A stretch of 39,756 bases of DNA. Source: a virus. Below the pieces are notes generated by a model. It was not told where the DNA came from, ran no database searches, and saw only the letters and a program-made list of their open reading frames with translations. The DNA is taken from the IMG/VR virus record IMGVR_UViG_3300045988_064554. The stretch is one strand, 5' to 3'. Positions 20,446 to 36,273 of the stretch are shown here, piece by piece. Position 1 is the first letter of the stretch. Each line of letters starts with the position of its first letter. The translations under genes were made by a program, and so were the position numbers.

Positions 20446-20573
20446 TGTTCTCCTTTCTCTCCCCGGACAAGCCGAGGAGATGAATCATCATGCTTTTGAA
20501 AAGGATTGTGACATGCTGTTCAGTCAGCCATTAGGAGTTCATATATCAACCTTATCCGCAAGGTTAATACCTG

Positions 20574-20882
20574 TTATAACCAAGACTTTCCGAACACCTC
20601 TCTGAACTCTTCTCTGCTGCCTATATGCTCTTCGAAATATCGTTGAGCCATCTGCTTGAGTTCCAAGTCCAAACCGTGATTCGGATTGTCATGTACGCTC
20701 CCCTTTTGGAATTCATGGAGATACGGTGCAAGGGGAATCACAAATCCGTATCTCTCAGATATCTTTCTTCTGCTGCCACAAAAGATATGGTGTATGTGTG
20801 GATAAGGATATCCAGTGAAGAAGCAGTGGTCCATATCATCAGTGAACACACTTTTCAATCGTTTAGCCAATGTCCACTCCAT
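20574..20882 (-). CDS. His/Cys-rich small protein (HNH-like metal-binding), function unknown.
   Basis: Pattern DHCFFTG...HIHHIFCGSRRKISERYGFVIPL...H...HDNPNH. Confidence 0.45.
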   Translation of the reverse strand: MEWTLAKRLKSVFTDDMDHCFFTGYPYPHIHHIFCGSRRKISERYGFVIPLAPYLHEFQKGSVHDNPNHGLDLELKQMAQRYFEEHIGSREEFREVFGKSWL

Positions 20883-21438
20883 ACCTTTCTTTCAGTAATC
20901 TCTTCTCATCTGGTGTCGCAATCTCTGATGCTGCAAGTCCTGCTTCCTTACAGCTTGTAATAAGTCCATCAATGAGCCTTGCCATCTCTGATGTATCGTA
21001 GGTACTTGAACCTCTCAACAACTTGTACGTTCTGTACATGATACCGTCCAAGCCTTGCCTTACTTGTAATGTTGGCATCAGATGATATTCTGTTGCTTGC
21101 ATCACTTTCTTTTCCGCATCTTCCGTATCCGGTACTGTCATGTATACCGGCTTTCCTTCAATGATCTCCGGCTCTCCGTAGTGAATCAACATCAAGTTAT
21201 GCATCTCTGCATTCGATGTGTTCATTACCTTTGCAAGCTTGGTGAGTAGTACCCAGTAGTAAGCATTAGCATCAAGACTTCTTTTCTTCCTGTATGGCTT
21301 TATCTCAAGGCTTAAAACCTCTTTGCCTTTCAATTCCTCGTAAGTCTCAAGAAAGTCCTCATTTGGCTCAAATAGAATGGTCAGACGATGCGTTACAAAG
21401 TCGATAATTGGTTCTTTGAGTTTTCCAGTGAAACGCAT
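20863..21438 (-). CDS. NinB/Orf-like recombination-associated protein (tentative).
   Basis: KKRSLDANAYYWVLLTKLA resembles the lambda NinB RSLDQNRKLWA segment. It lies downstream of the annealase gene. Confidence 0.45.
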   Translation of the reverse strand: MRFTGKLKEPIIDFVTHRLTILFEPNEDFLETYEELKGKEVLSLEIKPYRKKRSLDANAYYWVLLTKLAKVMNTSNAEMHNLMLIHYGEPEIIEGKPVYMTVPDTEDAEKKVMQATEYHLMPTLQVRQGLDGIMYRTYKLLRGSSTYDTSEMARLIDGLITSCKEAGLAASEIATPDEKRLLKERYGVDIG

Positions 21439-22116
21439 TTATTTCTCACCCATTCTTTTCATCAAGTAGTCAAATTGTTCAATGTTCAGTTCTTCCAGTG
21501 ATTTGACCTTAAATGTTTTGCAAACCTTTTCAACGGTCTGTCCGTGACTCTGGATGCACGTTTGTAATGTTGCTACATGAGAAGCATCAAGAGTATGTGG
21601 TGTCACTGGTTGTTCGGCTGTTGTCTTTCCCATTGTGTACACAATCTTTCCAGTCTTCTCATTCTTGATGGACAATTCTTTGATTGTCTTGTCCTCAATA
21701 ACAATGTGGTCTACTTCGAACTTGTCATTGCATTTTGTTCCGTTAATGTTGCAATTACTTGAGCTGATCCAGATGAATGGTGCTGTGTACAGTTCTCTTC
21801 CAATTCCCCAGTTAAAACACGCTCTCTTGAAAGAATCGGATGCCTGACCTTTCTCTTTCTCTGTGTAAGACTCTTTTCCTACATCTTGTTTTGATACCCA
21901 GATACCTTTTTCCGCATCGTAGATTGATACTGTACAGTACAGATTACCGTCTATCACTTCATGTGATCTCTGCCAGTTAAAAGGTCCGACTGCCTCATCT
22001 AAGACATTCTGATCAACTCTCGCATCCTTGTATAGCAACAGTGATATACCATTTGATTTCACCGTTGAAATTCGGCAGTCTATTTCGCTTGCTTTCAAAT
22101 CTCTAAATGTAAGCAT
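21439..22116 (-). CDS. Rad52/22-family single-strand annealing protein (Sak-like).
   Basis: Pattern GKESYTEKEKGQASDSFKRACFNWGIGRELY. Confidence 0.75.
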   Translation of the reverse strand: MLTFRDLKASEIDCRISTVKSNGISLLLYKDARVDQNVLDEAVGPFNWQRSHEVIDGNLYCTVSIYDAEKGIWVSKQDVGKESYTEKEKGQASDSFKRACFNWGIGRELYTAPFIWISSSNCNINGTKCNDKFEVDHIVIEDKTIKELSIKNEKTGKIVYTMGKTTAEQPVTPHTLDASHVATLQTCIQSHGQTVEKVCKTFKVKSLEELNIEQFDYLMKRMGEK

Positions 22117-22126
22117 CTTTTCACTC

Positions 22127-22612
22127 CTATCTAATACGCAAGCTTTCTGTCTGCTCTAAGTGAGCAAAGTCTGCTTTGTTCTCTTTCAGCCACTTTTTAA
22201 GTGCTGTGTTGTCAAGTTTCGGTTTTTGTGCCACCCAGTACTCATCTGGAATGTTTTCTTCCTGGTCAATAACAAGGCTTGGTGGATTCTTCTGAATACT
22301 GAATCCGAAAAGGTCTGTCTTAAACTTCTTCTTGCCGGTTGCAATCATTACACTCTCAAGGTACTTCTTCGCACTCTTTGCATTGTTACTAATAGCATCT
22401 TTCTTCGCTTTCAGACGGTTGATCTCTGTCTCGATCATGGTTGCTGTTCCGTCCAGCTCTTTAATAATCTTCGCAAGGTTCTCAGCCTTAATCTCAATCT
22501 CTCCTTCTACACCTTCCAGTGTGTCACGAAGCACTTCCATATCTACGGAATCATCTTCCATCATTTCAAGCAGTTCGTTGTACTCTTCTGCAAGTTCATA
22601 TAATTTAGACAT
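22127..22612 (-). CDS. Siphovirus Gp157-like protein.
   Basis: MSKLYELAEEYNELLEMMEDD...FKTDLFGFSIQKNPPSLVID. The start is at ATG 22612, with GGAGGAAAG upstream. Confidence 0.7.
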   Translation of the reverse strand: MSKLYELAEEYNELLEMMEDDSVDMEVLRDTLEGVEGEIEIKAENLAKIIKELDGTATMIETEINRLKAKKDAISNNAKSAKKYLESVMIATGKKKFKTDLFGFSIQKNPPSLVIDQEENIPDEYWVAQKPKLDNTALKKWLKENKADFAHLEQTESLRIR

Positions 22613-22886
22613 CTTCTCTTTCCTCCGCGTTGTAATTATCCGCAAGTCTCTTGTGCATCTTGTGCTGTGTGATTCCTAATTCATCAAAGGACAGTTCCTC
22701 ATGATCCCACACCGATGGTTCTTCGTGCTTGACCGGAAGTCCGATAATTGCTTTCACTGTGTCCAGTTTGATATATCCGTTTTCTTCATTGCTGATGTAA
22801 GCTTTGAGCGTTTCCATTCGTGCATCTGTTTTGCACAGCTCTTCAAATTTTGAAACGCTTACTTCAAGTGTTTTTTCTAACAACAT
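22605..22886 (-). CDS. Hypothetical early protein.
   Basis: ORF track. Confidence 0.55.
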   Translation of the reverse strand: MLLEKTLEVSVSKFEELCKTDARMETLKAYISNEENGYIKLDTVKAIIGLPVKHEEPSVWDHEELSFDELGITQHKMHKRLADNYNAEEREDV

Positions 22887-22898
22887 TGCTTTCTCCTT

Positions 22899-23132
22899 TC
22901 ACAATGGCAGTTCTTGTACTAATTGCAGAACAAGTGTGCTAATTGCAAGAAGTTTTTCGTCAACGTCTCTATCTCCACGCACGTACCGTTCTACGTTTGC
23001 GAAAATGTATGCTGATGCTTTCATAATCAAATCTTCGTCTTTGACACCATTCATGTCACAAAACTCTGATGCAAATATTGGAATGATTGCGTTCAGCTTA
23101 TCCAAAGTTATGGTAAAATTATCTTTTTTCAT
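22899..23132 (-). CDS. Hypothetical early protein.
   Basis: ORF track, with the RBS AAAGGAGAAAG upstream. Confidence 0.55.
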   Translation of the reverse strand: MKKDNFTITLDKLNAIIPIFASEFCDMNGVKDEDLIMKASAYIFANVERYVRGDRDVDEKLLAISTLVLQLVQELPL

Positions 23133-23217
23133 TGCTTTCTCCTTTTTGAATTGTTATTATTAAGTTGGTTAATTACCTAAGCGCCTGAAGATTTGCCGTC
23201 TTTCCCGGGCGCTTATT

Positions 23218-23400
23218 TTAATATCCGAAGATAACCCATGTTGCGATTCCTAAGACAACTACCAATCCCATCGCAACTACTGTCATAACAGCAGACTTTT
23301 TTTCTTCTCTGTCATCATGCTCAATTCTTCTTGGCTGTCTCTTGGTATTAACTATCTGGATTGCTCTTCTTTGGATGTCGATCATATCGATCTGATTCAC
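23218..23400 (-). CDS. Small membrane protein with a C-terminal TM helix.
   Basis: GTG start with GGGAGG 8 nt upstream. The hydrophobic stretch is VMTVVAMGLVVVLGIATWVIFGY. Confidence 0.55.
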   Translation of the reverse strand: MNQIDMIDIQRRAIQIVNTKRQPRRIEHDDREEKKSAVMTVVAMGLVVVLGIATWVIFGY

Positions 23401-23480
23401 CTTGTCTCCCTCCCTTCACATAAGATGTACATGGAATGAATCTACTCATCTCCATGCAGTGGTTCTTTCTTCTGCATTCC

Positions 23481-23855
23481 TTACAGTTCCGCATCTGTCT
23501 CTCCTTCCATCTTCCGTACCAATATCATCGATTCGATTGGATCATACTCAGGAACATACTTTCTTGTTGCACCTTCCAGTGCTCTGAAGAATCGGTTGTA
23601 ATCTGCGTAGACCGCTTTATCGATGTATCTGTCAATAATCGCATCTTTTGGATACCGACCAAGCTTGATCTGATTCATGATTCCATATTTCCGATTCTTA
23701 ACAGTTCCCATTGACTGACCATACACATCCTTGAAGTACGATGTCTTTGCGTACTGAGCAACTGGCTTTCTTTCATCTGCCAGTGCAGATGCAATCTGCG
23801 GAAGAATTTCATAGATGCGTTCCAGCTCTGCAACAGCTTGTGCTCTTGTCAGCAT
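23481..23855 (-). CDS. Hypothetical early protein.
   Basis: ORF track. Confidence 0.55.
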   Translation of the reverse strand: MLTRAQAVAELERIYEILPQIASALADERKPVAQYAKTSYFKDVYGQSMGTVKNRKYGIMNQIKLGRYPKDAIIDRYIDKAVYADYNRFFRALEGATRKYVPEYDPIESMILVRKMEGETDAEL

Positions 23856-23869
23856 CTCTTCTCACCTCT

Positions 23870-24109
23870 CTAGTCATCATAAGTGCGTGGAATCATGTCC
23901 TCTGTCAGTGCGTAGAAATCGCTGAGGTACGCTCCGTCTTCTGTGATACTTAAATCAACAGCAACGTTGTTCTCGTTCATCAGCATGATACTCAACGCAC
24001 ACTCTCCTTTGATTATTCCGTTGCCAACAGCCAAGACCTTAAAGCCTTTCAGCGCGTGCAGTTCTTCGGAATCTCCGTTTACTTTTCCATAATTAAGTTT
24101 GTTTATCAT
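23870..24109 (-). CDS. Hypothetical early protein.
   Basis: ORF track. Confidence 0.5.
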   Translation of the reverse strand: MINKLNYGKVNGDSEELHALKGFKVLAVGNGIIKGECALSIMLMNENNVAVDLSITEDGAYLSDFYALTEDMIPRTYDD

Positions 24110-24124
24110 TGTTTTTCACCTCAC

Positions 24125-24153
24125 TTGCTATTTTCTATTTCTTCTCCTATACT
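24125..24153 (+). promoter_or_regulatory. Sigma-70-type promoter: TTGCTA, 17-nt spacer, TATACT.
   Basis: Read directly. It lies about 50 nt upstream of the plus-strand gene at 24201. Confidence 0.55.
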
Positions 24154-24200
24154 TTAAATACAGCACTGCCATGCCGAGTATAAAGAAAGGGGTTTACTAT

Positions 24201-24446
24201 ATGAATAAAGTTTACGCTTGCCTTGCTGGTGAGTGGGTATGTCTTAACGATGACCCAGACAGCAAAATCAGCGAATACGGAAAATCACCGTATCTCTGGT
24301 GGGAAGAGGGGGCTCCCATCTATTCTCCATGCAATAAGGATAAAGAACTTGAACATAGCTTTTATGGTCTTGATTATGTTCACGTTTATTACAAAGGGAA
24401 CGATTGGAGAATCAACCCTATGTTTATCCAAATTGTGAACGGATAG
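24201..24446 (+). CDS. Hypothetical 81-aa protein on the opposite strand to the early operon (moron).
   Basis: The ATG at 24201 has AAAGGGG 8 nt upstream and its own promoter. The track ORF starts at 24099. Confidence 0.55.
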   Translation: MNKVYACLAGEWVCLNDDPDSKISEYGKSPYLWWEEGAPIYSPCNKDKELEHSFYGLDYVHVYYKGNDWRINPMFIQIVNG

Positions 24447-24591
24447 TTTTTCCTACACGCTCCACATCGGTGAGTTCGAGTTTCCTCTTGGATTCACCGA
24501 TTAACCGGTTAAATTCATTGTCCATACCTTCCCGTAACTTAATCCATTCAAAATAGGAAATTCCCTTTAATGCTTCGATGTATTTCTCCAC
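24424..24591 (-). CDS. Hypothetical 55-aa protein.
   Basis: GTG start at 24591, preceded by GGTGAGTAAA. This is the same 14-nt initiation region as the upstream gene. Confidence 0.45.
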   Translation of the reverse strand: MEKYIEALKGISYFEWIKLREGMDNEFNRLIGESKRKLELTDVERVGKTIRSQFG

Positions 24592-24592
24592 T

Positions 24593-24775
24593 TTACTCAC
24601 CCACTTTCTGCACATACAGTTCATCTCTTGTGATAAGAAGCGACCATTTTCCATTATTAAATTCCAAATCAATACGGCTTACCATTGACACTTCCTCGCC
24701 ATTCAATAAATAAATTCCTTTTTCTGTATCAATATGAATTGATTTAAATGGTTTTCTTTCTATTGTTTCAGCCAC
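24593..24775 (-). CDS. Hypothetical 60-aa protein.
   Basis: GTG at 24775 lies 8 nt after AGGAGG. The track start at 24784 abuts the RBS. Confidence 0.5.
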   Translation of the reverse strand: MAETIERKPFKSIHIDTEKGIYLLNGEEVSMVSRIDLEFNNGKWSLLITRDELYVQKVGE

Positions 24776-24816
24776 TTTACTCACCTCCTACATCACTGAT
24801 TAGTTCGTCAATAATT

Positions 24817-24871
24817 GAAAATATTTTCATGTTATGATAAAATTCTTTCATAAAATTACGAAAATATTTTC
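24817..24871. promoter_or_regulatory. Two identical 12-bp perfect palindromes, GAAAATATTTTC, at 24817-24828 and 24860-24871 (candidate operators).
   Basis: Read directly. They are 43 bp centre to centre, in the 212-bp divergent intergenic region. Confidence 0.6.
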
Positions 24872-24996
24872 GCAACATTTTGTATAACAAACATTCGTTT
24901 TGCACTCTATCTAGTATTTTTGTATTGACACATCATAATATTAGTAGTAGCCTTTTTATAGAAGCTTCAAAATTCTAATGAAAGGCAGGTGACAAT

Positions 24997-25227
24997 ATGA
25001 GACGCTACAACCCTCCATTTAATGGAAACCGCTATGTATTAAACAAAGCAACTGGAGAAATCCACGATCTGGATAACGAAACATCTCTCTGTCAAATCGA
25101 TGAAATGAATCCAGACCATGTATCGAACTGTGTATCTTATGAAGATGCCAAGTTCCGTGCTGCTTTCTTTTCACCACATGGCGGAAATGGTTGCTACTAC
25201 TGTTTACGATCAAAAGATAACGGATAA
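24997..25227 (+). CDS. Hypothetical 76-aa Cys-containing protein on the plus strand.
   Basis: ORF track, with RBS-like GGCAGGTGA upstream. It converges on and overlaps 25197..25403. Confidence 0.5.
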   Translation: MRRYNPPFNGNRYVLNKATGEIHDLDNETSLCQIDEMNPDHVSNCVSYEDAKFRAAFFSPHGGNGCYYCLRSKDNG

Positions 25228-25403
25228 CCCGATTGAGCTATGGACTTCAATGTCTGTAGCTCTTTTTCTGGCATTTCTTCCCTCAGAAGCTCCGTAAGCC
25301 TTTCGGTTGTTTTGCATTCCGAAACCATGTCAAATACCAGTTCTGAAAACTTCTGTTCGTCTGTGACCATCTTTAATGCATCGAACTTTTTCACATCTCT
25401 CAC
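25197..25403 (-). CDS. Hypothetical early protein.
   Basis: ORF track. It overlaps the stop of the Cro-like gene. Confidence 0.5.
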   Translation of the reverse strand: MRDVKKFDALKMVTDEQKFSELVFDMVSECKTTERLTELLREEMPEKELQTLKSIAQSGYPLSFDRKQ

Positions 25404-25639
25404 TCTCCTTTCTTGATTCCAAAAAGATAATTTGCATCTACGCCAAATTCTTTTACAACATTAATTAATGATGCTATGTCTGCCGCACGCATAATTCTTC
25501 TTCCGTTTAACATGTCATTTAACTCTTGTGCAGTAAATCCAGCTTTTGTTGCTATTGCTGCTTGCTTCAATCCCTTTTCAGAAATAACATTTTTTAAACG
25601 AACCGCAACAACACTGTTTGATGCTGTAATATCAAGCAA
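25400..25639 (-). CDS. Cro-like XRE-family HTH regulator.
   Basis: HTH segment LKQAAIATKAGFTAQELNDMLNGRR. TTG start at 25639 with GGAGG 7 nt upstream. The longer track ORF would begin inside its own promoter. Confidence 0.7.
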   Translation of the reverse strand: MLDITASNSVVAVRLKNVISEKGLKQAAIATKAGFTAQELNDMLNGRRIMRAADIASLINVVKEFGVDANYLFGIKKGE

Positions 25640-25661
25640 CTTGATTCCTCCTTTCTTTTTA

Positions 25662-25732
25662 ACAAGTTTCTTTTCATTTACGATACTATAACAAGATTCT
25701 TGCTTTGTCAATATGTTTTAACAAATTTCTTG
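25662..25732. promoter_or_regulatory. Three 12-bp operator-like repeats, consensus ACAAnnTTCTTG, at 25662, 25691 and 25721.
   Basis: Read directly, with 29- and 30-bp spacing. The middle copy contains the perfect palindrome CAAGA-T-TCTTG and sits in the spacer of the leftward promoter. Confidence 0.6.
25683..25711 (-). promoter_or_regulatory. Leftward early promoter: TTGACA, 17-nt spacer, TAGTAT.
   Basis: Read on the minus strand. Confidence 0.65.
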
Positions 25733-25742
25733 TTTGTTTATA

Positions 25743-25771
25743 TTGACATGCCAAGATTTATGAAATACAAT
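25743..25771 (+). promoter_or_regulatory. Rightward repressor promoter: TTGACA, 17-nt spacer, TACAAT.
   Basis: Read on the plus strand, 35 nt upstream of the GTG at 25806. Confidence 0.65.
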
Positions 25772-25805
25772 ATTTACATAAAAATATAAAAAAGAGGTGA
25801 TTTAA

Positions 25806-26279
25806 GTGAGCGTAGGAAGTCGTATAAAAGAATTACGCGAAAGTAAAGATATGTCCAGAAATGAACTCGCTGATTCTGTTGGTGTTACGATTGGAGCTAT
25901 TTCAAATTATGAAAACGAGGTTAGCTCTCCTAAAGAACCCATTCTATTTAAAATCATGGAAGTTCTTAAATGTGATGCTAATTACTTATTTCAAGATGCT
26001 ATTGAAATGCCAAAGATGAAAAACACTGTTTCTGTAGAAGAGTTTCGTTTTGTGGAAAAGTACCGTGAACTCGATGCTCATGGACGAGAAATGGTCGATT
26101 TTACATTAACTAAAGAATGGGAACGTTCCATAGATATAAAAAATCGACCGAACAATATTGCGGAGATGCATCCTCATCTTATGGCTAATGCAGCTCACGA
26201 ACGTACAGATATAGAAGTAACTGATGAAATGAAGCAACATGATGACAACCTCATGAGTAATGACAAGAACTGGGAATAA
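25806..26279 (+). CDS. cI-like XRE-family repressor without an S24 peptidase domain.
   Basis: HTH segment SRNELADSVGVTIGAISNYENE. GTG start with AAGAGGTGA upstream. Confidence 0.8.
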   Translation: MSVGSRIKELRESKDMSRNELADSVGVTIGAISNYENEVSSPKEPILFKIMEVLKCDANYLFQDAIEMPKMKNTVSVEEFRFVEKYRELDAHGREMVDFTLTKEWERSIDIKNRPNNIAEMHPHLMANAAHERTDIEVTDEMKQHDDNLMSNDKNWE

Positions 26280-26328
26280 TTTTCATAAAGCATATTGCGT
26301 AATATAGATGTATTGGAGGTGTTACACA

Positions 26329-26790
26329 ATGGATGCATATGAAGAGCTTTTAGAGTCTGCTTACAACGAGGGACTGATTGTAAAAGAAATGCCATTGCAA
26401 TCCAGTGATGGTAGGATTTATGGAAATAGAATTGCTATACGGCAAGATATAACAACCTCTATTCAAAAAGCCGGAGCGCTTGCCGAAGAATTGGGGCATT
26501 ATTATACAACTGTTGGAAATATCCATAATCAAAGTATAATTGAAAATCGAAAGCAGGAACGTCAAGCCCGGTTGCACGGCTACAACCGCCTGATCGGACT
26601 TGTGGGAATCATCCACGCATTCAATGCTGGATGTCAAAATAAATATGAAATTGCAGACTTTCTGGATGTTACAGAAGAATATCTGGAAGAATGTATTAGC
26701 TGCTACCGTGATAAGTATGGAGTATATACTACCGTTGATAACTATATTATATACTTCATTCCATATCTTACGGTTATTAAAATGCTTTAA
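26329..26790 (+). CDS. ImmA/IrrE-like (M78-type) protein with a non-canonical EELGH motif in place of HExxH.
   Basis: The segment GALAEELGHYYT aligns to the usual LAHELGH. It lies directly downstream of the repressor. The ATG at 26329 has GGAGG 9 nt upstream. Confidence 0.6.
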   Translation: MDAYEELLESAYNEGLIVKEMPLQSSDGRIYGNRIAIRQDITTSIQKAGALAEELGHYYTTVGNIHNQSIIENRKQERQARLHGYNRLIGLVGIIHAFNAGCQNKYEIADFLDVTEEYLEECISCYRDKYGVYTTVDNYIIYFIPYLTVIKML

Positions 26791-26869
26791 AATACAGTAC
26801 GAATGTAACTGGCACGATATATACAAGAATTTATAAATGTCCAAATGTATTTTAACTTCATATAAAAAA

Positions 26870-26894
26870 ACGCCATTCTTCGAACTGGTGTTTT
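26870..26894 (+). terminator. Terminator-like hairpin after the ImmA-like gene.
   Basis: ACGCCA-N10-TGGTGT followed by TTT. Confidence 0.45.
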
Positions 26895-26904
26895 GGAGGA
26901 ACAA

Positions 26905-27060
26905 ATGATGCTTGAAAAAACTAAAGATTATTTTGTAACTAGATATTCTTTAATTCCAGACATACAGCTTGATTTAGATTCCTTTTGCGGCATTACAAAG
27001 GAAAAAAAGTTTTTAGACTGGTTAATGTCCTTTAACATAAGAAAAAAACAAGGAACTTAA
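26905..27060 (+). CDS. Possible 51-aa ORF (MMLEKTKDYFVTRYSLIPDIQLDLDSFCGITKEKKFLDWLMSFNIRKKQGT).
   Basis: Hand translation. GGAGGA lies 4 to 7 nt upstream of two tandem ATGs. It is below the track cutoff. Confidence 0.45.
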   Translation: MMLEKTKDYFVTRYSLIPDIQLDLDSFCGITKEKKFLDWLMSFNIRKKQGT

Positions 27061-27118
27061 TTATCGTGGTAAGAATTATACTCTGTATTGTAAGCGAGTA
27101 TTTGATAATTGTTTTTTT

Positions 27119-27772
27119 ATGAGTTTTGCAAAAGAAGTGCATGAAACAATAGGCACAAAAACAGACGAAGGGATTCGAGACAAACTAATTGAAAATTACA
27201 AAAAATGCAACATTTTAATTCAAACTCAAAATCAATGGATGCTAATAGAAAAAAGTTCCGATATTTCCAGTAGCATTGAATCTCAAAAAAATCTTATTGC
27301 AAAAGTCATATCTAAATCGCTGAAAAATAAAAATCTTTACTTCGAATTAGGTATAATGACCGAAAAAAATAATTTTTGGAAATATGTTACCGATAACGCC
27401 GACTGTTTGACTGATATCGATATTACTCTTTCTTCACCAAATTTCTTGAACGGTATAAAAACTGTTTCAGAGTTTTTGCATCAGACAAATGATATTTACA
27501 ATAACACTAGCGTGGGTATACACTTGAAAAATGAAGAAGGACATCTTATTATTAATAAAGATAATGAATTTTTACGAGATTCTATTCGCTATGCTTCTGC
27601 AGGTTGTGGAAGGTGGAAAGCAAAAGCTTCTAAAGATTCTAAAGGATGTTCTAGCATAGATAATCCTTTTATTATACATTTACCTGAAAATGTAAGTCAG
27701 CTTAAAGATTCTGACGAAAAACATATTCTTGATGCAATTAGTCACTTAGAAAGAATTGACTCAGAAACGTAA
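27119..27772 (+). CDS. Orphan 217-aa soluble protein (AT-rich cassette, gene 1).
   Basis: ORF track. I recognise no catalytic or nucleotide-binding motif. Confidence 0.7.
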   Translation: MSFAKEVHETIGTKTDEGIRDKLIENYKKCNILIQTQNQWMLIEKSSDISSSIESQKNLIAKVISKSLKNKNLYFELGIMTEKNNFWKYVTDNADCLTDIDITLSSPNFLNGIKTVSEFLHQTNDIYNNTSVGIHLKNEEGHLIINKDNEFLRDSIRYASAGCGRWKAKASKDSKGCSSIDNPFIIHLPENVSQLKDSDEKHILDAISHLERIDSET

Positions 27773-27787
27773 AAAGGAATTGATTTT

Positions 27788-28384
27788 ATGAAATTAAAAA
27801 AATTTTTTATTTTGTTGGCGTCATGTCTTGCCACTTCTGTTGCTTTAACTATTACTTTATCGCCATTTGACGAAGATGTTATTAATTATGGCGTGGTAAT
27901 TAATATAGAAATTGCACTTTTTTCCGTTTCTTTAACTATTGTGGCACTACTAATCACTATTTTAGAAAAGTATAAAGAAAAAGTGACCAATCAATCAGTA
28001 TGGGCACAAAACAGTACTAAAATTTTAAAAGAGCTTTGTGAAAACACAATATCATTATTGTGTTTATTAGCCCTGCTTTTCCTGGCAACAATTTTTAAGT
28101 CCTTGTTAATTTTAATTCCTGTAGTAGACGTAATGACAGTAATCTTGCTTTTTTCTATAATTCTTTCTATAATTGCTTGCTTTGATACAACCATTAGCGT
28201 TTACCATTTAATAACCAATTTAAAAGATGTACTCGTTCAGCCTTCTGTATCTATCGACAATCTATCGCAAAAAGAATTATATTTAGTAGATGCATACAGG
28301 CAATTAGACGCAAAACACAAAGAAGAACTAGAGGATTTACTTAGGGCTTTTTCGATAGACCAACAAATCCGAACAAATAAATAA
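27788..28384 (+). CDS. Orphan 198-aa membrane protein with four hydrophobic segments and a charged C-terminal tail (AT-rich cassette, gene 2).
   Basis: Hydrophobic stretches at about aa 6-24, 34-58, 86-110 and 114-137. It starts 16 nt after gene 1. Confidence 0.7.
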   Translation: MKLKKFFILLASCLATSVALTITLSPFDEDVINYGVVINIEIALFSVSLTIVALLITILEKYKEKVTNQSVWAQNSTKILKELCENTISLLCLLALLFLATIFKSLLILIPVVDVMTVILLFSIILSIIACFDTTISVYHLITNLKDVLVQPSVSIDNLSQKELYLVDAYRQLDAKHKEELEDLLRAFSIDQQIRTNK

Positions 28385-28403
28385 GATATAACCGCTTCGG
28401 CGT

Positions 28404-28440
28404 TTATATAGAGTATGTGGTGTACTCAAAGGAATAGGCT
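28404..28440 (+). promoter_or_regulatory. Leader element copy A: TTATATAGAG, hairpin GAGTA-TGTGGTG-TACTC, then ...AGGCT.
   Basis: Aligns to copy B at 29076-29112. Confidence 0.55.
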
Positions 28441-28461
28441 CGTAAAAGAAAGGAAAAGCTT

Positions 28462-29061
28462 ATGAAAAAGAAAATTGTAACAATGTTGTTGGTTGGTGCT
28501 ATGGCATTATCGTCTACTGCTTGCGGTAGCACTCCAAAAAATGAAGTGAAAAGTGAAACTTCTACAGACCAGTCGTCTGATGATGGAGAGGAACTGAAAG
28601 CCGAAAAGAACCTACTTAGCGTTGAAGTTACACTTCCAGCTTCCCTTGTCAAAGACGGTGAAGCTGAACTGGATGAAGAAGCTAAGGAAGCTGGTGTTAA
28701 AGAGATCACTAAAAACGACGATGGTTCTATCACCATGAAAATGACAAAGGAAGCTCATAAAGAACTTCTTAGTTCAATCAAGGAAAGTGTAGATGAAAGT
28801 AACGAAGAAATTATCGCAGATAAGGAAAACTACCCTTCCATTGAATCTATCACTTACAATGATGATCTGACAGAATTCACTGTCAGTGTTGATGGCGCAT
28901 CATTTAATGGTCTTGAAAGCTTTGTTGCTATTGCTTTTTACATGGAAGGGAATATTTATCAAGCATTGAATGCTGTTCCGGAAGATGAAATTAATACTAC
29001 CGTTAATTTCGTAGACAAAGACTCTGGAGAAGTTATAAACTCAGCTGATTCTTCAACATGA
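28462..29061 (+). CDS. Prophage lipoprotein.
   Basis: Signal peptide plus lipobox: MKKKIVTMLLVGAMALSSTAC. Confidence 0.8.
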   Translation: MKKKIVTMLLVGAMALSSTACGSTPKNEVKSETSTDQSSDDGEELKAEKNLLSVEVTLPASLVKDGEAELDEEAKEAGVKEITKNDDGSITMKMTKEAHKELLSSIKESVDESNEEIIADKENYPSIESITYNDDLTEFTVSVDGASFNGLESFVAIAFYMEGNIYQALNAVPEDEINTTVNFVDKDSGEVINSADSST

Positions 29062-29075
29062 AAGATCAGCAGTAA

Positions 29076-29112
29076 TTATATAAAGCGTGTGGTGCGCTTA
29101 GCAAACAAGGCT
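29076..29112 (+). promoter_or_regulatory. Leader element copy B: TTATATAAAG, hairpin AAGCG-TGTGGTG-CGCTT, then ...AGGCT.
   Basis: Aligns to copy A. The stem sequence differs but base pairing is kept, and the 7-nt loop is identical. Confidence 0.55.
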
Positions 29113-29143
29113 ATATCACTAAAAGAAAGAGAGGGAAACACGA

Positions 29144-29722
29144 ATGAAAAAGAAAGGCGGATGTTTAAAAACTGTATTAATTGTTATCGGCGTAATTATT
29201 ATACTCGGTATCATAGGTTCTGTTATTGGTGGAAAGGATGACGGACCTAAAAAGGTAAACAGCGACACTTCTACTGACGCAACGCAAGATGCTTCAAAGA
29301 ATGAATCAGAGCCGGAACAGACTGTATTTAACGTTGGAGATACTGTGAATCTCAATGATGTTGAAATTACACTTGTGAACATCACCGAATCTGCCGGTGG
29401 GGAATATACTACCCCTGACGAAGGAAACGAGTTCTTAATCCTTGAGTTTGAGATTGCAAACAACTCATCAAAAGATATCAGCATCAGCTCCGTAATGAAT
29501 TTCGAAGCCTATTGCGATGATTACTCACTAACACAAGATCTTGTTGGACTTCAAGCCCCTGAAGCTAGTGGAAAGAATCAGCTTGATGGAAGTGTTGCTG
29601 CTGGAAAGAAGATGAACGGTGTGATTGCATATCAGGTACCTACAACTTTCTCGAAATTCGAGGTTAGCGTTGCTCCTGATTTCTGGTCATCAAAAGATAT
29701 TCAGTTTGTTTACAGTAAATAG
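29144..29722 (+). CDS. Membrane-anchored DUF4352-like protein.
   Basis: An N-terminal TM helix is followed by VGDTVNLNDVEITLVNI...GNEFLILEFEIANNSSKDISI. Confidence 0.7.
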   Translation: MKKKGGCLKTVLIVIGVIIILGIIGSVIGGKDDGPKKVNSDTSTDATQDASKNESEPEQTVFNVGDTVNLNDVEITLVNITESAGGEYTTPDEGNEFLILEFEIANNSSKDISISSVMNFEAYCDDYSLTQDLVGLQAPEASGKNQLDGSVAAGKKMNGVIAYQVPTTFSKFEVSVAPDFWSSKDIQFVYSK

Positions 29723-29768
29723 TTAATTTGCGGTGTTTGGAACAAGGTTCATTTGCATGAGAGGAACC

Positions 29769-29942
29769 ATGAATATAAAAGAATACGTTTATGACAACAA
29801 ACTTTCTTCCTTATCCGATACAGAATTGAGAGCTTATGGAAGAGAACTACTGGCAAGACAATATGCCGGTGAAGAACTTACAGATGAGTTATATACAGAG
29901 TTGAGAGATGTATGTAGCGAATTTGTAAACAGGGATAATTAA
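29769..29942 (+). CDS. Hypothetical 57-aa protein.
   Basis: The ATG at 29769 follows GAGAGGAA. The track ORF begins at 29733. Confidence 0.45.
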   Translation: MNIKEYVYDNKLSSLSDTELRAYGRELLARQYAGEELTDELYTELRDVCSEFVNRDN

Positions 29943-29951
29943 ATAAAATAA

Positions 29952-29979
29952 AACCGCTCCTGTTGGCGCAGGAACGGTT
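29952..29979. terminator. Hairpin AACCGCTCCTG-N6-CAGGAACGGTT, with its T-run only on the minus-strand side.
   Basis: Read directly. It lies between the accessory block and the integrase. Confidence 0.4.
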
Positions 29980-30120
29980 GACACACCAAACTCCGAAGAG
30001 CGGTGCAGATTATATGAAGCAATAATATTGTATCATCTTCGGGGCAGTCATACAAGCAGAACTGTTGTTCTGTTGTGGGGCTGTTATTTTTGTACTCAAA
30101 AAATAGAAAGGAAGATGATT

Positions 30121-31218
30121 ATGTGGGTTGAAGAATTAAAGAATGGCAAGTACAAATTTGTGGAACGCTACACCGATCCAATGACCGGGAAGTCAAAACG
30201 AGTAGCTGTTGTAATGGATAAAAACACAGCAAAGAATCGTAAAATGGCAGCACTGACTCTGTCAGATAAAATTGAGAGTGCCCTCACACCGCAAGTGGAC
30301 AGAATCCGTTTAAAAGACCTTGTCGAGCTGTACAGAAAAGAGCAAGTCAAGACACTTAAACAATCTACTTACAGACGGAACATTGCCGTGTGTAACACGC
30401 TTATGAGCATTCTTGGCAAAGATATCTATGTTGACAAGCTGACAGCCGGATACATCAGAGAACGTTTTCTCGGCACTGGTAGAGAACACAGCACTCTAAA
30501 TGAATGGATGATCAGATTAAAAGCGTTGTTACGTTGGGGATACAAGAATGATTATATTGCAGACATATCTTATCTTGGAAAGATAGAGCGTTTCAGTGAT
30601 ATACCTCATCGGCAGAAAATAGAGAACAAATTTGTTGAATCATTGGAGTTAAAGGAGTTAATCGCTGGAATGACCGTTGTAGAATGGAAGTTGCTTACTG
30701 AATTTCTCGCCTTGTCTGGTCTTCGATTTGGCGAGGCTGCAGCTCTGAACACTTCTGATGTTGATTTGAAGAATAGGAAAATTCATGTAACGAAAACGTA
30801 TGACAATGTAGCAGACATCGTTACAAGCCCAAAGACACCGTGTTCTGTGCGAGATGTATATATACAAGACGAGTTACTCACTGTCTGTAGAAACGTGCTC
30901 CTATGCTACCACAAAGGCACTGTAGTGGCATTCAGCACAGCTTTCTTCCCTGGAACAACGAAAGAACACATCAACTTCGATTGCTACTCTAAATATTTAC
31001 GTGAAACATCTGAACGAATCATTGGGCGGAGAATCACACCGCACACTCTTCGGCATACACATGCCAGTTTACTGATGGAGCAAGGAATTGACATTGACAG
31101 TATCTCAAAAAGGCTTGGACATAATGACAGCAGAATTACACAAGAAATTTATCTCCACGTCACAAAGAAATTAGAAAGTAAGCGAAACGAACAGCTAAGG
31201 GAGTTAAAAATTTTATAG
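30121..31218 (+). CDS. int: Tyrosine recombinase / integrase.
   Basis: The C-terminal catalytic pattern is TPHTLRHTHASLL...LGHNDSRITQEIYLHV. The ATG at 30121 follows GAAAGGAAG. Confidence 0.9.
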   Translation: MWVEELKNGKYKFVERYTDPMTGKSKRVAVVMDKNTAKNRKMAALTLSDKIESALTPQVDRIRLKDLVELYRKEQVKTLKQSTYRRNIAVCNTLMSILGKDIYVDKLTAGYIRERFLGTGREHSTLNEWMIRLKALLRWGYKNDYIADISYLGKIERFSDIPHRQKIENKFVESLELKELIAGMTVVEWKLLTEFLALSGLRFGEAAALNTSDVDLKNRKIHVTKTYDNVADIVTSPKTPCSVRDVYIQDELLTVCRNVLLCYHKGTVVAFSTAFFPGTTKEHINFDCYSKYLRETSERIIGRRITPHTLRHTHASLLMEQGIDIDSISKRLGHNDSRITQEIYLHVTKKLESKRNEQLRELKIL

Positions 31219-31450
31219 TTTGCCCCATTTGTGCCCCATAAACATAATAAAAAATCTCCAAACCCCTTGCAAACACTGGATTTACAAGGAATTCAGAGAT
31301 TAAGTTCGATGCCGCAGACCGGCTACTCAATGCATATAAATAGGTACAAACTAATGTGAAATAACGTATTTTAAGACGTTTTCAACTCTGAAACCGTATA
31401 TCAAAGTACAATATTCTGCCCCTTTTTTGCCCCTCATGATACAATATTCA
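31219..31450. other. Putative attP region with two pairs of TGCCCC motifs.
   Basis: Motifs at 31221/31232 and 31417/31428, each pair 11 bp apart. The non-coding stretch lies between the convergent int and endolysin genes. Confidence 0.5.
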
Positions 31451-31555: not shown

Positions 31556-32737
31556 TTATTCATTCTGCTGCATATATCCATTCTTTCCGAACATGTACTT
31601 CTTACCGCCAATTACTAATGTTTCATCACAAGCCATTTCTCCATTATCTTTGAAGTAATACCATGCTTCTGGCAGTTTTAACCATTTATTTTTGTACATC
31701 GCTCCAAGCGGCATATCTTTTGTGGCTATTGTATTGTACCAGTAATAATCATCTCCTGCCTGTCTCCATCCGGTAAGCATCTGGCCTGTCTGATAACGTC
31801 TGTCTTCTCCTGATTTAACAAGATAATAGTCGTTACCGGCATATCCTTTTAACTCACCTTCCAGTAGTGTTCCCTGTGCATGTTTTCCTTCTCTCTTCGG
31901 TCGTAGATAGAAATAGTTTCCACCTGCCAGAACCCAACCGGTTAACATAGCCCCAACCGGTTTCTTTGGTGCGACTACTCCATCATTCAGGAAGTACCAT
32001 TCCCCGTCAATCTTATTCCATCCGGTCCGCATTCCCCCTGTTCCGTTAAGCCAGTAGAAATTTCCCTGGTACTGAATCCACTGATTCTGGACAACGTACC
32101 CTTTCTCGTTAAACCAGTAAAATGTCCCTGCTATTTTTCTCCAACAGTTCCGTGGATAGCTTCCATCCGGATCCTGCCACCAGTCACCGACTTTGTCTTT
32201 TATCCATTTTCCCGTCGTTTTTTTCGTCACAATAATTCCGAAAGCCCTGAGGATTCCTTCCGCGATTTCCGCAATATGATCATTAAAAATTTTTCTGTCC
32301 TGATCATTGTCAATAAATCCGCATTCCATTAAACGATAATTCAGCCCTCTCTTGGCAGCCCGGTCTACATTTGCCAGGTCAGAACGATACTTGATATTCT
32401 CGGCTCTTCCCGGCATTAATGTAGAGATAAAAAGAGCAAGTGACAAATCGTATTCGTCTGGAGTGAATCCCTCTTTGATGATGATATGTCCGCCTCGTGC
32501 CGATCCACCGCCTGCATCCATATGCAGCTCTAAAATGTTTGAATCTTCCGAGAAGTTGTAAGTACTTATCAGCTTATCTCTGTACCAGTTTTTACTCGTA
32601 TCCCCAAGAATGACCGCTTCTCCGCCAAGTTCTTTAATTTTGGCGGCCAACGTTCTGACGCGTTCTGCTTCTGTATATCCACCACCATCGGCTCCCGGAT
32701 CCCCTTCACCGTGTCCACAAATAATAAATAACTTCAT
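31556..32737 (-). CDS. Endolysin: N-acetylmuramoyl-L-alanine amidase (Amidase_3-like) plus C-terminal cell-wall-binding repeats.
   Basis: N-terminus MKLFIICGHGEGDPGA...ECGFIDN, and multiple GW/YYF-type repeats. The ATG at 32737 has AAGGAAG 6 nt upstream. Confidence 0.9.
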   Translation of the reverse strand: MKLFIICGHGEGDPGADGGGYTEAERVRTLAAKIKELGGEAVILGDTSKNWYRDKLISTYNFSEDSNILELHMDAGGGSARGGHIIIKEGFTPDEYDLSLALFISTLMPGRAENIKYRSDLANVDRAAKRGLNYRLMECGFIDNDQDRKIFNDHIAEIAEGILRAFGIIVTKKTTGKWIKDKVGDWWQDPDGSYPRNCWRKIAGTFYWFNEKGYVVQNQWIQYQGNFYWLNGTGGMRTGWNKIDGEWYFLNDGVVAPKKPVGAMLTGWVLAGGNYFYLRPKREGKHAQGTLLEGELKGYAGNDYYLVKSGEDRRYQTGQMLTGWRQAGDDYYWYNTIATKDMPLGAMYKNKWLKLPEAWYYFKDNGEMACDETLVIGGKKYMFGKNGYMQQNE

Positions 32738-32786
32738 ATTGCTCTTCCTTTCATGTACTGCATGCATCTCTTGCACCGGTACAATT

Positions 32787-33110
32787 CTACTTTTTCTTAT
32801 ATGCATTCCGATTCCACATTTCTGTCACACGTTCCCAGCCGCCTGTGCTGACCAGGTAAACTATAAAAGCGGCAATGAATGATGCGAAAATGTAATACCA
32901 CTCAATCACTATCTGATAATAGGTGCACAAGACGATTACTGCTGCCGGTGTCAGAATCAGTGATGTGATCAGTGCCACAACATTCGTCTGCACTTTTTTC
33001 AGTGCCGGCATCTCCTTGATTGCCTGCACGATCACGCTGACCAAGAAAGCCAGCACTCCAATTCCTGCTAAAATGTAACTCATGTACTGCATTAATGTTT
33101 CAATGTTCAT
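32787..33110 (-). CDS. Holin.
   Basis: Three hydrophobic segments and a basic C-terminus (NAYKKK). The ATG at 33110 has GGAGGG 8 nt upstream. It lies directly upstream of the endolysin. Confidence 0.75.
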   Translation of the reverse strand: MNIETLMQYMSYILAGIGVLAFLVSVIVQAIKEMPALKKVQTNVVALITSLILTPAAVIVLCTYYQIVIEWYYIFASFIAAFIVYLVSTGGWERVTEMWNRNAYKKK

Positions 33111-33357
33111 GTTCAATTCCCTCCAAATCTTCAATTCTATGGTTTGCTACCTTGATCTGTTCTTTTTGAATAGAAAGTTCCCTCTCTATACTATATGTAC
33201 GTTCAACCACATGATTGTGTTTGTCTACTCTTTTGGTCAGCTCATCTAGCTTGTATTCCATAAGAGCTCTTGTCTTTTCCTGCTGGCCGTGGTTGTTCAG
33301 CAGACAGATTATCAACGTTACTGCTGCTGTGATGCAGGATGATATAATAGTTTCCAT
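33100..33357 (-). CDS. Membrane-anchored coiled-coil protein of the lysis cassette (XhlA-like function possible).
   Basis: N-terminal TM helix plus heptad-rich region. The topology differs from B. subtilis XhlA as I recall it. Confidence 0.45.
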   Translation of the reverse strand: METIISSCITAAVTLIICLLNNHGQQEKTRALMEYKLDELTKRVDKHNHVVERTYSIERELSIQKEQIKVANHRIEDLEGIEHEH

Positions 33358-33372
33358 TTTTTGTTCTCGCTT

Positions 33373-33486
33373 TCATCTCTTGATCTGTATCAGACACATA
33401 ACTACGATTCTCTTGTTCTGCCTGTGCTGCTCATCATCAATTCTTTTGGCGAACTCTGCATGCTCTTCTCTGCCTACATATTCCAT
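33373..33486 (-). CDS. Possible 37-aa ORF (MEYVGREEHAEFAKRIDDEQHRQNKRIVVMCLIQIKR).
   Basis: Hand translation, with AAGGAG 7 nt upstream. The N-terminus resembles XhlA-type H..F..R...E..R...RI. Confidence 0.35.
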   Translation of the reverse strand: MEYVGREEHAEFAKRIDDEQHRQNKRIVVMCLIQIKR

Positions 33487-33524
33487 CACCATTCTCCTTA
33501 AATACTTATAGTTCTGATTTTGTT

Positions 33525-34433
33525 TTAGCTTCCAATCGCAATCCAATTATAGGTAGCATTATCCATGAATTTATATTCTTTCACTGATTCTGTCCAAGAG
33601 AATGTACCACCAGACACGCTAAAACCAGACCTATCTGTGATTCCACAAGGTTTTGAGTACACGCTGTAATCACCACAGAATGTCACCTTTGCTTTTCCAT
33701 CTGCGGAATACACAGCAGTTACAACACCTACTGATGTGATTTTATCGGCATAGATTATCAGCTTATCAATCTTAGACAAGCCAGTATTTATAGTAGGAGA
33801 TGATGTTGTTCCAGTTTTTACCTGTACACCACCAGAACCTCCGCTAGATGCTTCCATTGTGCCAGTAGCAACACCATCCTTTGAAGTGAATCTCTTACCT
33901 TTTCGCACATCTTCTGGCAACGCATCGCCAAAGAATCTACCTAATGTGCCATTGCCATAGAGCCGAAACGAACCTCCATTTTTTAGGTACGCTGATGCGT
34001 TGCTAAGAGAAACATTGTTAAAAATCATAGTAAGGTCTTCGCTATCTTTGGTCAAAGTAATTCTTCCTATACCAACTGTAGGCTTGCTTGCATCAAGCGT
34101 TGCCATACTTCCAGTGACTTTTTCGCCACCAACATAAGCTGTCTTACCCGATACAATGTCCTCTGATAATGCTGTAGCATCTGATGTGTCGACTCCGCTT
34201 GACTGTATCATCGTTCCGACAATTCGCTGTCCGCTACTATCATGAGCTGTAGCACCAGCTAACAGATTTTCTGGTGTCACAGTGTCTTCTGCAAGATTAA
34301 TTAGCGCACCAACTATTTTTGCACCAGTTTTATCATGAGCCACAGCACCCTCTAAAAGCTGGTCTTCTGTCACTGTGTCCTCCGTCAAATCAAGTAATAC
34401 CTTACCTGCATATTCTACTTTATTTACTGCCAT
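33525..34433 (-). CDS. Tail fibre protein, paralog 1.
   Basis: The module DTVT-x3-LL-x-G-x2-AHD-x2-G-x2-IVG occurs twice. The N-terminus is shared with 34446..35021. Confidence 0.65.
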   Translation of the reverse strand: MAVNKVEYAGKVLLDLTEDTVTEDQLLEGAVAHDKTGAKIVGALINLAEDTVTPENLLAGATAHDSSGQRIVGTMIQSSGVDTSDATALSEDIVSGKTAYVGGEKVTGSMATLDASKPTVGIGRITLTKDSEDLTMIFNNVSLSNASAYLKNGGSFRLYGNGTLGRFFGDALPEDVRKGKRFTSKDGVATGTMEASSGGSGGVQVKTGTTSSPTINTGLSKIDKLIIYADKITSVGVVTAVYSADGKAKVTFCGDYSVYSKPCGITDRSGFSVSGGTFSWTESVKEYKFMDNATYNWIAIGS

Positions 34434-34445
34434 ATATCACACCAC

Positions 34446-35021
34446 CTAACCAATCGTCACTGTAGTTCCACCAGCAGAATTTTCTGATTCCACATACGGT
34501 ATCTTTTCCACTGTAACCTGTGACAGATGCGTATATCCGGCATCCGGCAGAATGGTCTGTTGTGCGCTTGACGGAGTGACTGTCTTAGCCTGTGCTTTGA
34601 CACCTTCACTTCCTGACATCGAACCTTTCACTCCGAGGATAGTCACACCCTCTCGGATATTATTAGCGGTCAGTTTCGCCTTTTCTGTGGCATCAATAGA
34701 AACTTTTCCTGACCCATCATGATATCCCTGTGGGATTGTATACGCACCATCTTTTGTGCTGATTTTACCTGTCACAGCACCGTTGTTTGGCATTGTTCCA
34801 GTCAACATTACTCCTCTTGCGTAGGCTGTTTTGCCTTTTAAAATCTCTGCAACTGCGGCAGTGGCATCATTAGAATCTACATCAAACGTACACGCTCCTG
34901 TGACCAATTCTCCGTCTTTTCCATGTGCCGTGATACCGCTCAACAGCTTATCCGCAGTCACAGTATCGCCTGTTAAGTCAATCAATGTCTTTCCACCATA
35001 TACTACTTTATTAACACTCAT
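34446..35021 (-). CDS. Tail fibre protein, paralog 2.
   Basis: The N-terminus MSVNKVVYGGKTLIDLTGDTVT matches paralog 1. The C-terminal VTP...IPY.E..N..GG.T..IG module matches 35028..35312. Confidence 0.65.
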   Translation of the reverse strand: MSVNKVVYGGKTLIDLTGDTVTADKLLSGITAHGKDGELVTGACTFDVDSNDATAAVAEILKGKTAYARGVMLTGTMPNNGAVTGKISTKDGAYTIPQGYHDGSGKVSIDATEKAKLTANNIREGVTILGVKGSMSGSEGVKAQAKTVTPSSAQQTILPDAGYTHLSQVTVEKIPYVESENSAGGTTVTIG

Positions 35022-35027
35022 ATTTAA

Positions 35028-35617: not shown

Positions 35618-35632
35618 ATAATCACCGCCTCA

Positions 35633-35767: not shown

Positions 35768-35823
35768 TTCTTTTCCTCCGTTGTTTTGTAGTAATATGAA
35801 TAGATTTGTTAATAGAGTTACCA

Positions 35824-36195: not shown

Positions 36196-36245
36196 AGCTT
36201 CTCCTCTCTGAATCATGTTTCTGTGTTTCATATATAAAAGTGCAT

Positions 36246-36273
36246 AACAAAAACACCCGACCTACGCCGGATG
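36246..36273 (-). terminator. Rho-independent terminator inside the tail module.
   Basis: Minus-strand RNA reads CAUCCGGC-GUAG-GUCGGGUG followed by UUUUUGUU. Confidence 0.65.

Follow-up and report, generated by a model that had tools for sequence, protein, structure and literature searches.

The cassette and its reading frames

We analysed a 39,756-nt stretch of viral DNA (IMG/VR record IMGVR_UViG_3300045988_064554; hereafter the window), in which an AT-rich cassette at positions 26905-28384 lies between the repressor genes and the integrase gene of a phage. The initial annotation, made from the letters alone, had read this cassette as three open reading frames (ORFs) and as a candidate for an undescribed defence or exclusion system. 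We find two genes instead, the first encoding a soluble protein of about 291 amino acids (aa) and the second a membrane protein with four transmembrane (TM) segments, and suggest that together they may form an exclusion module built like the RexA/RexB pair of phage lambda.

All three ORFs are present on the + strand at the positions first given, 26905-27060 (51 aa from the ATG), 27119-27772 (217 aa) and 27788-28384 (198 aa). The first two, however, are parts of a single gene (26905..27772, + strand) for a soluble protein of ~291 aa with an RdgC-like predicted fold, our RexA-like candidate, as indicated by homologues spanning both fragments, DNA alignments to intact relatives, an AlphaFold2 (AF2) model and a Foldseek search. 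Homologues of the 217-aa protein are 289-311 aa long, mostly 290-291, and cover both ORF pieces; the closest, P0001, is 97% identical and its N-terminus matches the 51-aa ORF sequence. The 51-aa ORF (26905..27060, + strand) is the N-terminal fragment, its residues 1-45 authentic and near-identical to residues 1-45 of P0001, its final six the product of out-of-frame read-through. The 217-aa ORF (27119..27772, + strand) is the C-terminal fragment, with homology in its frame from 27041 on; similarity to P0001 runs on through 27061-27118 in that same frame. As annotated, it is without ~72 N-terminal residues, among them the nearly invariant R13 and the RYSLIPD motif. The gene begins behind a ribosome-binding site, GGAGG at 26895..26899 (+ strand), 5 nt 5' of the ATG at 26905, which was read from the sequence and is conserved in the upstream-region alignment. 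On the other strand, a 184-aa ORF at 26350-26904 (- strand) runs opposite the ImmA gene and the intergenic region; its product is low in complexity and hydrophobic, and it is most likely spurious.

The third ORF (27788..28384, + strand) encodes the four-TM partner, our RexB-like candidate, recognized from 87 homologues, their alignment and hydropathy; it is 198 aa long in the window and 197 aa in sister genomes. By alignment with intact relatives, we placed the frame break of the soluble gene at one extra A near 27039 (+1), and a second +1 at 27765 makes the 291-aa gene stop three codons early in the window. The 16-nt gap first reported between the second and third ORFs is likewise private to this contig: elsewhere the called genes are 4 nt apart (6 nt in one branch), and distant members have overlapping genes (11-38 nt). 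As written, the membrane gene is the sole intact cassette gene on this contig. Whether the break is an artefact or a mutation, the intact arrangement has a 291-aa gene and, 4 nt behind it, a 197-aa gene.

The exact 51-aa and 217-aa products were found on this contig only. Within the same 90% identity cluster, 8 of the 11 other members are 290-291 aa long, and the remaining three (91, 205 and 251 aa) all come from contigs of 0.8-6.5 kb. A sister prophage assembly (L063; L numbers designate fetched loci) aligns with window positions 16907-31338 with 0 substitutions in 14,435 bp, and carries an intact 291-aa gene with the 197-aa four-TM gene 4 nt on. It differs from the window by eight 1-2-nt indels (20492, 24163, 27039, 27765, 27781, 27793, 27803 and 29057), five of which fall within the cassette. 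An independent assembly, L064, has the L063 state at all seven of the indel sites it covers, and the more distant L062 and L031 share that state at the cassette sites.

That the differences from L063 are indels only suggests that the window contig contains sequencing or assembly errors. Seven of the eight nevertheless occupy tolerated positions (intergenic, in the last few codons, or in a frame-restoring +2/+1 pair), and only that at 27039 is disruptive; such a distribution is odd for random error and looks selected. We consider the split of the soluble gene most likely to be a sequencing or assembly artefact and otherwise a very recent mutation, and the apparent three-ORF structure is the product of contig-private indels. 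Intact-looking long genes had seemed to speak against contig error, an argument overturned by the sister-genome comparison. Programmed frameshifting or phase variation at the A7 run was rejected: the extra base precedes the G before the run (ATAAG versus ATAG), the mechanism would require a +1 shift, and the frame is uninterrupted on all other contigs. For the window, the technical lesson is that private indels can mimic a three-ORF structure.

Truncated or split ~290-aa genes were also seen at L012:5535-5996, L041:2784-3508 and L050:5938-6872 (proteins P0028-P0030), and in two of these loci, L012 and L050, an intact TM gene lies beside the damaged soluble gene. These could be recurrent losses of the soluble partner or more assembly artefacts. 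The lipoprotein ORF 3' of the cassette (28462-29061) encodes 199 aa in the window, whereas its counterparts in L062-L064 have 204 aa. Its last residues are altered by the 1-nt deletion at 29057, and its annotated C-terminus is therefore probably wrong in this contig.

Families and predicted folds of the two proteins

The soluble protein belongs to a family of 732 clusters at 50% identity, as counted by exhaustive profile search. Databases of known families gave no name to either product: the window proteins have no significant match in Pfam, PHROGs, NCBIfam or PADLOC, in keeping with the first reading, which had found no Walker, HExxH, PD-ExK, HNH or HTH motif in the 217-aa protein. Searching both proteins by tblastn against 50,697 phage genomes returned no match, and megablast of the region returned just a 100-nt match in an R. 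gnavus phage, inside the neighbouring lipoprotein ORF. Among 103 diverse members of the soluble family, Pfam scans at E<=0.01 and at E<=5 gave scattered chance matches and no family, and the Pfam RdgC model matched neither these nor the window protein. PHROG scans of diverse members gave marginal matches in two only (E ~3e-4), PADLOC matched no close or distant member tested, and the family profile found nothing among PDB sequences, RdgC included.

The AF2 model of the 291-aa protein has a predicted local distance difference test score (pLDDT) of 84.8 and a predicted template-modelling score (pTM) of 0.83, and its best PDB matches in Foldseek are two RdgC proteins, each of a different species (E 8e-5, probability 1.0, and E 7e-4, probability 0.94), the top one, 2owl, aligning over the whole length. 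Uncharacterized gut-phage proteins lead the BFVD matches (TM-score up to 0.64); after them come phage proteins with RdgC or recombination-associated annotations. The model is a confident one, and the fold that it suggests for the soluble protein is RdgC-like. For the membrane protein, the model was poor and the fold search uninformative. Conserved residues of the soluble family are R13, Q110, F157, W158, P178, N179, L214, G235 and S250, with no invariant acidic or histidine residue suggestive of catalysis.

The membrane partner does have, by hydropathy and by the secondary structure of its AF2 model, the four hydrophobic segments and the helical C-terminal tail of about 60 aa first ascribed to it. 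Its layout is TM1-TM2, a basic cytoplasmic loop with an amphipathic helix, TM3-TM4 and then the tail. No family could be assigned to it. SLATT and PycTM models had no match in full-length TM members, and no cyclase gene is adjacent; a SLATT/Pycsar-type effector was rejected, having only sub-threshold matches in two fragments (E 0.002-0.04, under the gathering score).

Conservation, exchange and setting of the pair

In all fetched loci that have an intact ~290-aa gene and downstream DNA, a four-TM gene (172-213 aa) comes next, starting anywhere from 38 nt inside the ~290-aa gene to 6 nt downstream of it. Asking whether the pair recurs as a unit at equivalent loci in other prophages, as had been proposed, gave a clear answer: it does, in many. 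The pair sits between repressor and integrase in mosaic, otherwise unrelated Lachnospiraceae prophages, whose backgrounds vary in repressor (ImmA-type or LexA-like, S24), in integrase (tyrosine or large serine) and in replication module (unrelated). Two phages, L031 and L032, share with the window just the cassette region (91% identity) and one methylase segment. The L031 phage also carries a Gad2-family gene (PF26128) at L031:695-1384. We take Gad2 to be an anti-defence family, and the gene to illustrate the defence and counter-defence cargo of cassette-bearing phages.

Distant homologues of the soluble protein, at 23-27% identity, occur in a Saprospiraceae (Bacteroidota) metagenome-assembled genome (MAG) and on JGI, Logan and IMG/VR contigs. 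They retain an overlapping partner of 172-202 aa, and one JGI contig has a TIR neighbour. Four hydrophobic segments were confirmed in the four distant partners whose DNA was fetched; one of these, the 181-aa protein at L034:4313-4858 of the Saprospiraceae MAG, is uncalled in the source annotation and overlaps the stop of its 302-aa neighbour by 11 nt. Single distant members used as queries for further loci added one locus from four scans. Homology links the distant partners to one another, and they align co-linearly with the TM family of the window (hhalign E 6e-5, 131 columns), which indicates that both genes co-diverge. The pair is tightly or translationally coupled and is exchanged as a unit between unrelated prophages.

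Composition fits this picture of exchange. The cassette has a G+C fraction of 0.298 against 0.396 for the window, which places it among the 5 lowest of 766 same-length sliding windows and about 5 standard deviations below non-overlapping windows; the earlier hand counts of 13, 19 and 26 G+C per 60 nt, on which a distinct composition had been argued, are exact. Low G+C, together with the ~91% identical copy in the otherwise unrelated L031 and L032, supports the separate acquisition that had been suggested.

A 30-nt element consisting of an A-run, a stem-loop and a U-run (26865..26894, + strand) lies directly 5' of the ribosome-binding site and is conserved upstream of the 291-aa gene in most loci. 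Its 7-bp stem pairs 26868-26874 with 26887-26893 around a 12-nt loop with a conserved CGAACU. Across 14 distinct versions, 94% of stem cells pair; sliding the partner lowers this figure to 30-50%. Two stem positions show compensatory changes. Folding energies are -7 to -10 kcal/mol (z -1.5 to -2.5), the window copy being at -10 (z -2.2). The element has no Rfam family, with only a chance sub-threshold match to rli38, and on the + strand of 26790-26905 a simple promoter/terminator scan found no signal. A terminator-like hairpin had been described here as closing the repressor/ImmA unit. A hairpin does exist, though a weak one; the terminator scan does not see it, and it belongs to the cassette rather than to the repressor/ImmA unit, accompanying the cassette whatever gene lies upstream. 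Candidate roles are a leaky terminator, an attenuator, an mRNA stabilizer or a protein-binding site.

At the other end, a small hairpin, AACCGC-UUCG-GCGUUU followed by a U/A-rich run (28390..28409, + strand), was read from the sequence 3' of the TM gene. The terminator scan did not flag it, and L031 has CAC/GTG where the window has CGC/GCG. Possibly, on this slight evidence, it marks the 3' end of the two-gene unit.

The cassette is co-oriented, as first noted, with a helix-turn-helix (HTH) repressor gene (25806-26279, + strand; Pfam HTH_3, E 2e-13) and with the gene of an ImmA/IrrE-type metalloprotease directly upstream (26308-26790, + strand; phrog_87 metalloprotease, E 9e-34), and it lies upstream of the integrase gene. 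This downstream, co-oriented position relative to the repressor is found in the window and in most Lachnospiraceae-type loci (L001-L020, L031-L032 and L062-L064). Exceptions are L012, a rearranged locus, and L035-L037, in which some 2.7 kb separate the pair from the closest ImmA/repressor genes and the orientations are opposed; in the distant members L033 and L034 no called HTH repressor adjoins it. The interval between repressor and integrase had been called a hotspot for accessory immunity genes, and its contents in relatives bear this out: in L001-L008 and L013-L020 the slot holds Abi_2, an ion channel with a DZR zinc-ribbon protein, and SLATT_1 with a ThsB-type TIR protein, and also NYN, PH_gly_zipper-SHOCT and Big_2 proteins and HicAB.

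Downstream of the cassette in the window, all on the + strand, follow more cargo genes of the lysogeny module, for the lipoprotein (28462-29061), a DUF4352/DUF5067 protein (29144-29722; phrog_806, E 1e-31) and a 69-aa ORF product (29733-29942), and then the tyrosine integrase ORF (30028-31218, assigned by family scans). The same set is present in the sister loci L062-L064. The membrane-anchored DUF4352/DUF5067 protein also has weak PHROG matches among superinfection-exclusion (Sie-like) families (E 3e-4 and 2e-3), and judged from these it may be a second exclusion-type gene of the lysogeny module. Elsewhere in the window, a tape-measure gene spans the contig end (39191-39756 and 1-~2200, - strand; C-terminal part 39191-39673). 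Since this gene runs over the contig end and L064 matches positions 273-1370 and 32877-37962, the window looks more like a circularly permuted phage genome than a host-flanked prophage.

Proposed function and comparison with known systems

Published work defines a RexAB-type class by a RexA- or DUF4747-like cytoplasmic DNA clamp, a four-TM protein immediately downstream and a nearby CI-like repressor (PMC6426596, PMC12894663). In lambda, RexA (31 kDa) forms dimers that bind DNA non-specifically and, unexpectedly, shows structural homology with RdgC; RexB (16 kDa) has four TM helices, and rexA-rexB adjoin cI and are co-transcribed with it in the lysogen (PMC11077077). Actinophages have Rex-like pairs of this same layout, and these exclude other phages (PMC11077077, PMC6426596). 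The cassette shares with these systems the fold lead, the type of partner, the gene order, the location and the orientation, and thus fits a RexAB-type exclusion module. We therefore propose, at a confidence that stands midway between belief and doubt and by analogy with a modelled fold, that its two genes make up a RexA/RexB-type module carried by prophages, in a variant that sequence models do not recognize. The soluble sensor with a small membrane effector, the layout first suggested, is still the best reading.

Such a module would work along the lines suggested for Sbash gp30/31, P. putida RexABpp and lambda RexAB itself. The soluble protein would serve as infection sensor, a dimer clamped non-specifically around DNA or around an intermediate of DNA and protein made by the phage. 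On superinfection it would engage the membrane partner, and the four-TM protein would then depolarize or permeabilize the membrane and so abort the infection.

Several results weigh against this proposal. RexA, DUF4747 and RdgC models match neither the window protein nor the 103 family members, even at E<=5, and RexB models (Pfam and PADLOC) match none of the 27 TM family members or distant partners tested. The Pfam (PF15969/PF15968) and PADLOC RexA/RexB models do recognize the lambda proteins, at E 1e-61 to 1e-110, RexA itself at 1e-97 (Pfam) and 9e-110 (PADLOC). By profile comparison, hhalign gives a probability of 1.3% against a 10-sequence RdgC profile, leaving the fold match without profile support, of 1.3-3% against a 4-sequence RexA profile, which is shallow and whose RdgC-RexA control reaches 0.1%, and of 0.3-0.4% for the TM family against RexB; comparisons with single sequences were likewise non-significant. 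Against RdgC, the model of the soluble protein reaches a TM-score of only 0.33. The RexA structure 8TWQ is missing from the best 50 Foldseek PDB matches, no RexA is among the best 50 BFVD matches, and the all-helical AF2 model of the membrane partner is poor (pLDDT 62), with no structural matches. The membrane partner is also about 50 aa longer than RexB, with a ~60-aa helical cytoplasmic tail that has no RexB counterpart. Finally, the lambda exclusion mechanism and the part played in it by DNA binding are themselves disputed (PMC11077077).

As these sequence tests fail, we leave the pair outside the RexA and RexB families. Failure of the RdgC-RexA control, which also scores nothing, makes the hhalign negatives weak, and they cannot exclude a relationship at the level of the fold. 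Additionally, the published RexBpp is likewise unrecognized by RexB sequence models, and P. putida RexABpp, whose activation permeabilized the membrane, was accepted as RexAB-type though its RexB-like partner is undetectable by HHpred (PMC12894663).

A non-killing mechanism resembling Kiwa is an unlikely but coherent alternative, in which the four-TM protein would sense or mark the site of phage entry and tether there an RdgC-like ring protein, which would capture incoming phage DNA and block its replication or late transcription. KwaA has four TM helices and, at the membrane, KwaB binds DNA that has been ejected, although the KwaB fold, Rossmann-like with DUF4868, is a different one (PMC11785009). 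Like Kiwa, the cassette has two tightly coupled genes, one for a four-TM membrane protein and one for a soluble partner of about 300 aa whose DNA binding, here only predicted, would follow from its resemblance to a ring-forming non-specific DNA binder. PADLOC models of KwaA and KwaB do not match, DUF4868 is absent from the Pfam scans of the 103 members, and no Kiwa structure is among the best 50 PDB fold matches; that the cassette is Kiwa itself was rejected on fold and on hidden Markov models. In Kiwa operons kwaA precedes kwaB, so that the membrane gene comes first, whereas in the cassette the soluble gene does. Kiwa also resides mostly on the chromosome or in defence islands, whereas the cassette lies in the immunity region.

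Equally improbable, in our estimate, is a role outside defence, with the RdgC/RexA-like DNA binder tuning RecA-dependent induction or stabilizing the prophage switch and the membrane protein modulating it. Precedents exist on both sides of the fold: E. coli RdgC lowers RecA activities, including RecA-dependent LexA cleavage, and RexA biases the lambda switch to lytic growth independently of RexB (PMC11077077). In most loci, moreover, the pair adjoins a repressor that is LexA-like (S24) or ImmA-paired. In L035-L037, however, it is apart from and opposite to the nearest repressor/ImmA genes, and L033 and L034 have no called HTH repressor nearby. A switch regulator would also be an odd tenant of an exchangeable cassette that associates with unrelated repressors, is absent from most phages and sits amid defence-type cargo, and a purely regulatory role leaves the strictly conserved membrane partner unexplained.

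A toxin-antitoxin or addiction pair (membrane toxin, soluble neutralizer) or a holin-like lysis accessory is very improbable, despite the tight coupling of the genes on a mobile element, the small hydrophobic protein and the HicAB genes near some loci, since the window, L012 and L050 keep the TM gene with a truncated or split soluble gene (some of these maybe assembly artefacts), which is not expected of an essential antitoxin, the 291-aa protein with its DNA-clamp-like predicted fold is unlike known small antitoxins, and the pair lies outside the lysis module, the endolysin gene (31556-32806) being on the opposite strand.

If the pair is an exclusion module of the RexAB type, several things follow. 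RexAB is among the oldest known phage exclusion systems, with a mechanism still unsettled and few known relatives, mostly in Proteobacteria and Actinobacteria. The cassette would represent a second and much larger family with this architecture, abundant in human-gut Lachnospiraceae prophages, in which the soluble partner looks nearer to RdgC than RexA does. It would give comparative leverage on what the soluble clamp senses and on how the four-TM partner is triggered. It would also add to gut-phage ecology an unannotated defence candidate, a module that Pfam, PHROGs, NCBIfam and PADLOC have all missed.

More speculatively, we regard it as possible, though doubtful, that the pair belongs to a large unnamed superfamily of at least 732 soluble clusters, spread over Firmicutes prophages, a Bacteroidota MAG and viral contigs from the environment, in which an RdgC-fold clamp and a co-evolving four-TM partner form a functional anti-phage system undetected by current tools. 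Such a superfamily would be the missing link tying lambda RexA to RdgC, with Rex-type exclusion a widespread prophage strategy, or else it would work in a different way, by keeping a DNA clamp at the membrane.

Measured against the closest described systems, the cassette is most like lambda RexAB, where too a soluble gene of ~280-290 aa comes first and a small four-TM inner-membrane gene second, the two adjoining the immunity repressor in the same orientation within a prophage lysogeny module. RexA has been placed in the RdgC-like structural class by crystallography and the cassette protein by prediction only, and the TM1-TM2, basic loop, TM3-TM4 hydropathy of the membrane partner is similar to that of RexB. 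The two differ in setting: an ImmA gene, and sometimes other cargo, separates the repressor from the pair, a conserved hairpin precedes it, and its hosts are Firmicutes and Bacteroidota, in contrast to the Proteobacteria of lambda RexAB. RdgC itself, a recombination-associated DNA binder that forms rings (PDB 2OWL/2OWY), is the best structural match to the soluble protein, is of similar length (about 300 aa) and aligns over the whole chain. Unlike the soluble protein, it is encoded by a stand-alone gene without a membrane partner, and there is no sequence or profile similarity between them.

The cassette also resembles the more recently described systems in how they were recognized. Sbash gp30/gp31, CarolAnn gp44, Toast gp42, Butters gp30/31 and P. 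putida RexABpp (PP_5643/5644) were placed mainly by architecture, and in prophage systems of the RexAB type remote homology is found for the soluble partner only, the RexB-like partner being typically undetectable by sequence, as it is in the cassette. The system is therefore not of an undescribed kind, as had first been thought, since its layout is that of lambda RexA/RexB and of the published RexAB-type pairs (PMC11077077, PMC6426596, PMC12894663). New are the two protein families and how widely they occur; the architecture is not.

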